From a virus (lineage: Duplodnaviria > Heunggongvirae > Uroviricota > Caudoviricetes), in IMG/VR virus record IMGVR_UViG_2698536552_000009: 5,684 nt of DNA; one strand, written 5' to 3'. The position numbers and the translations under genes are program-made. Each line of letters begins with the position of its first letter. The stretch's first letter is position 1. Shown in pieces: positions 1 to 94 of the stretch. The notes under the pieces are model-generated. The model had not been told where the DNA came from. It saw only the letters and a list, made by a program, of their open reading frames with translations, and ran no database searches.

Positions 1-94
1 GATGCCAAACTGTGATCGGAGATGGATGCCAAATCATGATCGATTCGAATGCCAAACTGCGATCGATTCAGATGCCATTTTGCACACTGAGTAC
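1..94. repeat. Four tandem copies (three good, one degenerate) of a ~23-bp unit, consensus approx GATGCCAAAYYRYGATCGATTC; copies start near 1, 25, 48 and 71; the first three each contain GATC
   Basis: Direct reading: the ATGCCAAA core recurs at 2-9, 26-33 and 49-56, with a degenerate ATGCCATTTT at 72-81; GATC at 14-17, 37-40 and 60-63. The 23-bp period is not a multiple of 3 and the array straddles the stop codon at 34-36, so it is not a protein-level repeat. Confidence 0.55.

Follow-up and report, generated by a model that had tools for sequence, protein, structure and literature searches.

The ends of insertion sequences of the IS21 family carry multiple direct repeats (L1/L2 and R1/R2) with a separation of 23 bp (PMC10122671, Spinola-Amilibia et al. 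2023). Each repeat contains two conserved regions, located around one DNA turn apart, which are contacted by HTH-1 and HTH-2 of the transposase IstA, and two complete repeats are required for integration (PMC10122671). A tetramer of IstA pairs two supercoiled ends, and the terminal CA gives the 3'-OH; both the binding of IstA to the repeats and the need of the repeats for transposition have been shown experimentally only for IS5376 (PMC10122671). The element present in the plasmid pCT has been named ISSso4 (PMC6361801).

A repeat array at the start of a stretch of viral DNA of 5,684 nucleotides (hereafter, the window) was compared with these systems. We conclude, with a probability of about 0.95, that positions 1-84 are the outer left terminal inverted repeat of ISSso4 (IS21 family, 2639 bp, istA and istB), inserted into the last codons of a baseplate-like gene of a prophage. 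The feature is a known kind of terminal repeat array, it belongs to a named and common insertion sequence, and as such it was already known.

Organization and conservation of the repeat array

The first 94 positions of the window read, in succession, GATGCCAAACTGTGATCGGAGATG, GATGCCAAATCATGATCGATTCG, AATGCCAAACTGCGATCGATTCA and GATGCCATTTTGCA, and then CACTGAGTAC. Three full repeat units and one terminal unit are contained in positions 1-84, with a spacing of 23-24 bp. Tandem Repeats Finder gave a period of 23, with 2.8 copies at 1-65 and 2.3 copies at 26-77, and a repeat search of the window returned a family (D8, ATGCCAAA..GATCG) with copies at 2, 26 and 49, this is, with spacings of 24 and 23. 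The consensus proposed in an earlier note on this DNA, made from the sequence alone, matched 25-46 and 48-69 with up to three mismatches, the expectation from 200 dinucleotide-preserving shuffles being 0.00, and a search of the whole window detected no other occurrence of the pattern. Boxes with the sequence ATGCCAA are located at 2-8, 26-32 and 49-55, with a degenerate ATGCCAT at 72-78, and GATC sites are found at 14-17, 38-41 and 61-64, in a TGATCG context at 13-18 and 37-42 and as CGATCG at 60-65. The description given in that note, three good copies and a degenerate one at 23-24 bp from each other, the first three with GATC and two of them as TGATCG, was correct in all its parts.

When the array is read on the minus strand, inward from its tip at position 84, it corresponds to the terminal inverted repeat on the left, istA-proximal side of ISSso4, of which positions 1-84 contain the outermost 84 bp, with 100% identity to the ends of full copies. 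The terminal unit, L1 (71-84, minus strand), reads TGCAAAATGGCATC and contains the tip TGCA and a box 2 (ATGGCAT), without a box 1; the tip bears the reactive CA-3' on the transferred strand. It is followed inward by three internal units on the same strand: L2 (49-65), CGATCG-CAGT-TTGGCAT, with box 1 at 60-65 (GATC at 61-64), N4 at 56-59 and box 2 at 49-55; L3 (26-42), CGATCA-TGAT-TTGGCAT, with box 1 at 37-42 (GATC at 38-41), N4 at 33-36 and box 2 at 26-32; and L4 (2-18), CGATCA-CAGT-TTGGCAT, with box 1 at 13-18 (GATC at 14-17), N4 at 9-12 and box 2 at 2-8. The general unit is therefore CGATCA-N4-TTGGCAT, followed by around 6 variable bases.

In full copies of ISSso4 the left end has the terminal unit and five internal ones, and reads, inward from the tip, TGCAAAATGGCATC tgaat CGATCGcagtTTGGCAT tcgaat CGATCAtgatTTGGCAT ccatctc CGATCAcagtTTGGCAT cacaat CGATCAcgatTTGGCAT gcttc CGATCAttgaTTGGCAT cc... 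The window holds the terminal unit and three internal ones, and L5 and L6 would fall past position 1, in such a way that the earlier suggestion of an array continuing beyond the window edge was borne out by the two additional units of the full copies. The right end of the element has a terminal unit and two or three internal units in inverted orientation, and reads ...GAGCGGAATACGCA. Neither sigma-70-like promoters nor terminators were found in the left end of the element or in positions 1-1000 of the window.

The same design of the ends was found in relatives from Serratia, Klebsiella, Erwinia, Buttiauxella, Rahnella and Enterobacter, whose IstA proteins are 79-89% identical to that of ISSso4 and whose left ends have three to five internal units; those from Serratia, Klebsiella, Buttiauxella, Rahnella and Enterobacter begin with the same TGCAAAATGGC as ISSso4. 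Among 47 units from eight elements of seven genera, conservation per position was 89-100% in box 1 (CGATCA) and 83-100% in box 2 (TTGGCAT), and both N4 and the spacer of around 6 bases between units varied freely. The period of the units was 22-24 bp, except for two outlying spacings in the most divergent element of the set (L018). The centres of the two boxes lie around 10.5 bp apart, one helical turn, so that both boxes are placed on the same side of the DNA.

The comparison was extended to the left ends of seven IS21-family elements, ISSso4 and six others with 42-52% IstA identity (an Aeromonas element, IS1491, ISEc12, ISAs29, ISBmu3 and ISFK1). In all seven (42-100% IstA identity) the best self-match was found at a lag of exactly 23 bp, and the 23-bp spacing is a hallmark of the family. 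Among these more distant elements a palindromic or nearly palindromic hexamer (TGATCA, CGATCG, CGGCCA) frequently forms box 1. Inverted copies of the unit were also observed in ISEc12 (L033), ISAs29 (L034) and ISBmu3 (L035), located further inward than the direct left-end units and upstream of istA, as for example GGAGATCACTTTTGACTCATTTTGTTATTCAGTGATCTCC in ISEc12.

Identity and mobility of ISSso4

Positions 1-84 are 100% identical to positions 6001-6084 of a segment of the E. coli O177:H21 genome (NZ_CP016546.1, L003) and to the ends of full 2639-bp copies in 13 further records (L004-L008 and L022-L029). The element in E. coli O177:H21 carries istA, annotated as an IS21 family transposase, and istB, annotated as an IS21-like element ISSso4 family helper ATPase. 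The left-to-right direction of the element corresponds to the minus strand of the window, and istA and istB would lie past position 1. The window thus covers 84 bp of the element, and other copies were the source for what is described here of istA and istB, of the right end and of the second duplication copy.

The 14 full copies are all 2639 bp long, begin with TGCG and end with TGCA, and are located on different chromosomes and plasmids. The genes hit by them are unrelated (tssG, fimE, pilN, yacAB and IS1397, among others), and the flanks vary from copy to copy, all of them ending at the same tip. Direct target duplications of 3-13 bp, mostly of 6-7 bp, were found in 15 copies, including that of pCT, which is 99.7% identical over 2639 bp (7 mismatches) and is flanked by the duplication ATACTT; positions 1-84 differ by one mismatch from the end of this pCT element. 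A target rule by which the duplication ends in AG, which appeared in the first 6 copies and the window, was considered and rejected, as AG was present in only 11 of 14; both the pCT duplication and that of the Klebsiella relative (GGCAT) lack it. The apparent rule is explained by the ranking of hits, in which a copy is placed higher when its flank resembles, by chance, that of the query.

The proteins of the element support its assignment. IstA scored 285.8 bits against the NCBIfam model transpos_IS21 (cut-off 160). For IstB, the score was 257.8 bits with IS21_help_AAA (cut-off 200) and 205.7 bits with the Pfam model IstB_IS21. IstA also matched the IstA of IS5376, of solved structure (8B4H/8Q4D), with an E-value around 3e-14, in a phmmer alignment that starts at residue 74 and leaves HTH-1 outside. 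The hallmarks of the IS21 family are present in this system: terminal inverted repeats ending in 5'-TG...CA-3', in the full copies and at the tip in the window; multiple direct repeats around 23 bp apart with two boxes separated by one helical turn; a gene for IstA, in this family a transposase of HTH-HTH-DDE-beta-barrel organization, followed by that of the AAA+ helper IstB, in full copies whose end is identical to positions 1-84; and short target duplications (around 4-8 bp being typical of the family) at many unrelated sites, with empty sites known for the insertion in the window and for that of E. coli O177:H21, both of them in E. coli DCE7 (L021).

Several transposase-binding repeats of around 22 bp near a TG...CA terminus are also a property of Tn7-like and Mu-like transposons, and this similar architecture, the match of IstA to Pfam Mu-transpos_C_2 and the likeness of IstA to TnsB and MuA stressed in PMC10122671 could suggest an end of that type. 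Nevertheless, the bounded unit of 2639 bp encodes only istA and istB and lacks both tnsABC and the A/B genes of Mu, and by its NCBIfam equivalog the transposase belongs to IS21. The gene content of the full copies excludes a Tn7/Mu-type end, to which we concede a vanishingly small probability.

We infer that, in the source genome, a complete element extends past position 1. The alternative is a relic, a solo or truncated end that deletion or recombination left behind and that is not followed by a functional element, and it arises because the window stops at 84 bp of the element and its junction was absent from the collections searched. Among E. coli genomes, partial copies greatly outnumber full ones: matches to the element were found in 2024 of 5426 complete genomes, in up to 34 places per genome, and at least 80% of it was present in 226 of them. 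The host element is moreover decaying, as shown by a frameshifting deletion of 74 bp at 630/631, and related end relics exist in Stx2a prophages. On the other side, full copies that look active match the 84 bp with 100% identity, and a break shortly inside a multi-copy element would be the usual product of short-read assembly at an intact repeated IS. We consider a relic unlikely, and keep the complete ISSso4 as the preferred reading.

One of the end relics mentioned is found in the Stx2a_1447 prophage (AP012536.1 56069-56135; L002 2501-2567), where an 82% match to window 24-89 coincides with the start of a pseudogene annotated as "transposase, partial" that adjoins espN. This match is probably the relic end of a related IS21-family element.

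Insertion into a prophage baseplate gene

The end of the element is located at position 84 of the window (...TTTTGCA-3'), and the target DNA, the 3' end of a "baseplate" gene of a prophage, starts at 85. In a search of the 5426 complete E. coli genomes, positions 85-330 matched with 98-100% identity the 3' part of an uninterrupted "phage baseplate protein" gene in many strains, and positions 1-84 did not travel with this match. A query across the breakpoint matched chromosomes and plasmids alike, with as many as 50 places in one genome. The empty site was read directly in E. coli DCE7 as ...TTATTAGGGTT CACTGAG TACTTTTTAAGC... (...GGGTT|CACTGAG|TACTTT), and from it, together with the duplications of mostly 6-7 bp of the full copies, a copy of the target-site duplication, CACTGA or CACTGAG, is predicted at 85-91.

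At the empty site the protein ends in ...KKYSVNPNKKY*. The gene of the window is cut after ...KKYSV and continues into the DNA of the element, in such a way that the last 6 baseplate codons are lost and replaced by 16 codons from the IS end, until a stop at 34-36. This stop, which closes the minus-strand ORF 34-345, falls within the variable N4 of unit L3 and is an accident of the insertion, as the gene is cut and reads into foreign DNA. A coding explanation of the repeats was rejected, given that the protein tail of the window is read from the IS end, unlike that found without the insertion. With a period of 23 bp the reading frame cannot be kept, and the array is conserved at the DNA level, coding not being the cause; the earlier note was right on this point, as it was in stating that the array spans the stop codon and shifts frame from copy to copy.

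The baseplate gene (85-778, minus strand; phrog_3721) is now a pseudogene through the IS insertion and the deletion. The missing 74 bp at 630/631 are present in E. coli O177:H21, in E. coli DCE7 and in the Felixounavirus homologues (GCCAACTACAACG...GTTTGCCCTG), and their loss shifts the frame and leads to a premature stop at 626-628; no obvious microhomology was detected at the edges of the deletion. The gene is doubly inactivated, and insertion and deletion together show that the surrounding phage-like element is decaying.

The exact junction, GATGCCATTTTGCACACTGAGTACTTTTTAAGC, had no matches in three public collections, of genomes, viruses and metagenome contigs, and this particular insertion of ISSso4 was present in none of the 5426 complete E. 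coli genomes. The sole record covering window 1-330, that of E. coli O177:H21, has its element around 270 bp away. It represents a second and independent insertion of ISSso4 (L003 3446-6084) in the same orientation, which interrupts the adjacent serine recombinase gene within its 3' part and is flanked by a 5-bp duplication, GGGAG, whose empty site was confirmed in E. coli DCE7 (L021 2729-2733). Chance, or a hotspot in this region, could account for two insertions around 270 bp apart.

The minus strand of the window encodes a phage tail module, with the tape measure gene (935-3106) followed downstream by the baseplate gene, annotated by NCBI as "phage baseplate protein". Strong nucleotide similarity to known phages is restricted to positions 319-754, which are 92-93% identical to the gene that follows the tape measure gene in Felixounavirus phages, and no megablast match was obtained in the phage collection for the window outside this segment. 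Taken together, window 85-3106 and L021 1340-6093 reveal an odd arrangement: the tape measure gene is accompanied by a lone "baseplate" gene, without additional tail genes, and immediately next to them, at the edge of the element, lies a large serine recombinase gene (phrog_95 integrase) in convergent orientation. The host element looks like a mosaic or cryptic phage-like island. Four runs of N, at 2822-3059 (238 bases), 3356-3605 (250), 3785-4049 (265) and 5012-5373 (362), hide portions of four ORFs, one of them the tape measure gene. Two arms of 27 nt (4198-4224 and 4261-4287, 85% complementary, 36 nt apart) form an inverted repeat at the 5' edge of the minus-strand ORF 3205-4218, and a perfect 11-bp tandem of 2.1 copies, AAAGGATTCAA, is found at 4346-4368.

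The regular spacing of around two helical turns, the conservation at the DNA level and the place in a phage tail gene cluster could also be expected from an array of the phage itself, such as iterons, a packaging signal of the pac/cos type or some different regulatory array, as the earlier note had proposed. This reading does not agree with a prophage gene that exists without the array in many strains, nor with an array that lies within a 2639-bp mobile unit found in at least 15 unrelated contexts, at chromosomal and plasmid sites and with target duplications. The consensus pattern, moreover, is nowhere else in the window, and the phage collection gave only short matches, these being IS-end remnants of Stx2a prophages and two unannotated short fragments. 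Iterons adjoin, and are bound by, a cognate Rep initiator at an origin and are fixed to a replicon, and the neighbours of this array are istA and istB and whichever gene was hit; packaging sites are conserved in related phages at the terminase end, and no related phage with the array was found. The empty site and the mobility of the element exclude iterons, a pac site or any array owned by the phage, an explanation that we regard as having practically no chance of being right, and the array, which the note took as belonging to the phage locus, is foreign DNA inserted there.

Predicted IstA sites, GATC and comparison with known systems

With the array placed in ISSso4, each of the points described for IS21-family ends in PMC10122671 fits it, and its units were therefore assigned as predicted binding sites of IstA, on the basis of homology and architecture. 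Each 23-bp unit would be a bipartite site, CGATCA-N4-TTGGCAT, and the terminal unit would supply the reactive ...CA-3' end. The presence of several direct units per end would allow multimers of IstA to assemble and to wrap and pair both ends. The AAA+ helper IstB would prepare the target, to which IstA would then join the ends, with a short duplication of the target as the result. The part of the earlier proposal that saw here a regularly spaced protein-binding array was supported.

GATC is present in box 1 of all eight internal units of the element, five at the left and three at the right end, and these account for 8 of its 12 GATC sites. It was also kept in 45 of the 47 units of the enterobacterial relatives. 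In the ends of IS10 and IS50, Dam methylation couples transposition to the passage of the replication fork, and N6-methyladenine sits in the major groove, the side of the helix that is read by HTH domains. The box 1 sites will be methylated in E. coli. All this would be expected if the binding of IstA, or the activity of the end, were dependent on Dam and coupled to the replication fork as in IS10 and IS50.

The total of 12 GATC sites, however, is close to the 10 expected from composition, and the comparison of Dam-positive and Dam-negative relatives revealed no correlation between GATC in the box and the Dam status of the host. ISBmu3 and ISFK1 have GATC in the equivalent box, and their hosts (Burkholderia and Bradyrhizobium, respectively) have, to our knowledge, no Dam, whereas two relatives from Aeromonas, a Dam-positive host, have CGGCCA or GTGAAC. 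CGGCCA, without GATC, is also found in IS1491 from Pseudomonas, and two inner units of the Enterobacter relative have CAATCA in place of the GATC box. A literature search returned no report linking IS21-family elements to Dam, and a search on the ISfinder wording for multiple repeated sequences gave nothing relevant. The presence of GATC in hosts without Dam, and its absence in Dam-positive Aeromonas, make it no evidence for control by methylation, and the methylation-sensitive role suggested earlier found no comparative support. The comparison speaks for GATC as a mere component of the putative recognition box, and we consider Dam-dependent activity of the ends improbable. A more specific form, in which the eight internal units are methylated at box 1 in Dam-positive enterobacterial hosts and assembly of the transpososome is licensed only on the hemimethylated DNA just behind the fork, seems slightly less probable still; if true, Dam control would be seen for the first time in an IS21-family element, and it would be exerted on a whole array of sites instead of on a single one.

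The identification brings little new biology, and its value lies in a correct annotation: the array marks the boundary of an insertion sequence, not a regulatory or packaging element of a phage, and probably marks a contig break too, and the stop codon and the "ORF" across it are artefacts of the insertion. The comparison also yields a clean consensus for the binding unit of the ISSso4 group, CGATCA-N4-TTGGCAT, and the 23-bp phasing of IS5376 holds in seven members of the family, which could help to delimit such elements automatically.

Compared with known systems, the closest is ISSso4 as annotated in the E. coli plasmid pCT and by NCBI PGAP, the pCT copy having 99.7% identity over the 2639-bp sequence, an identical IstB (WP_001282653.1) and the same ends and units, in such a way that the element described here is an isoform of it, with no difference of substance. 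The ends of IS5376 and IS21 (8B4H; PMC10122671) share with it the 23-bp direct repeats, the two boxes per unit at one turn, the terminal CA-3', the pair of IstA and IstB, and a left end with more repeats than the right one. The boxes of IS5376 were described as GC-rich (CS1/CS2), whereas those of ISSso4 are CGATCA and TTGGCAT; its left end has five internal units and the terminal one, where the description of IS21 speaks of "usually at least two"; and its IstA is only distantly related to that of IS5376 (E-value around 3e-14). The Dam-sensitive ends of IS10 and IS50 have in common with those of ISSso4 a GATC within the sequence recognized by the transposase, but they belong to a different transposase family, and the GATC of ISSso4 is shared with relatives in hosts without Dam. 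Finally, the iterons of plasmids and phages are likewise directly repeated protein-binding sites of around 22 bp in helical phase, but the array of ISSso4 has no link to a replication initiator or an origin, and it is mobile and bounded by TG...CA and target duplications.
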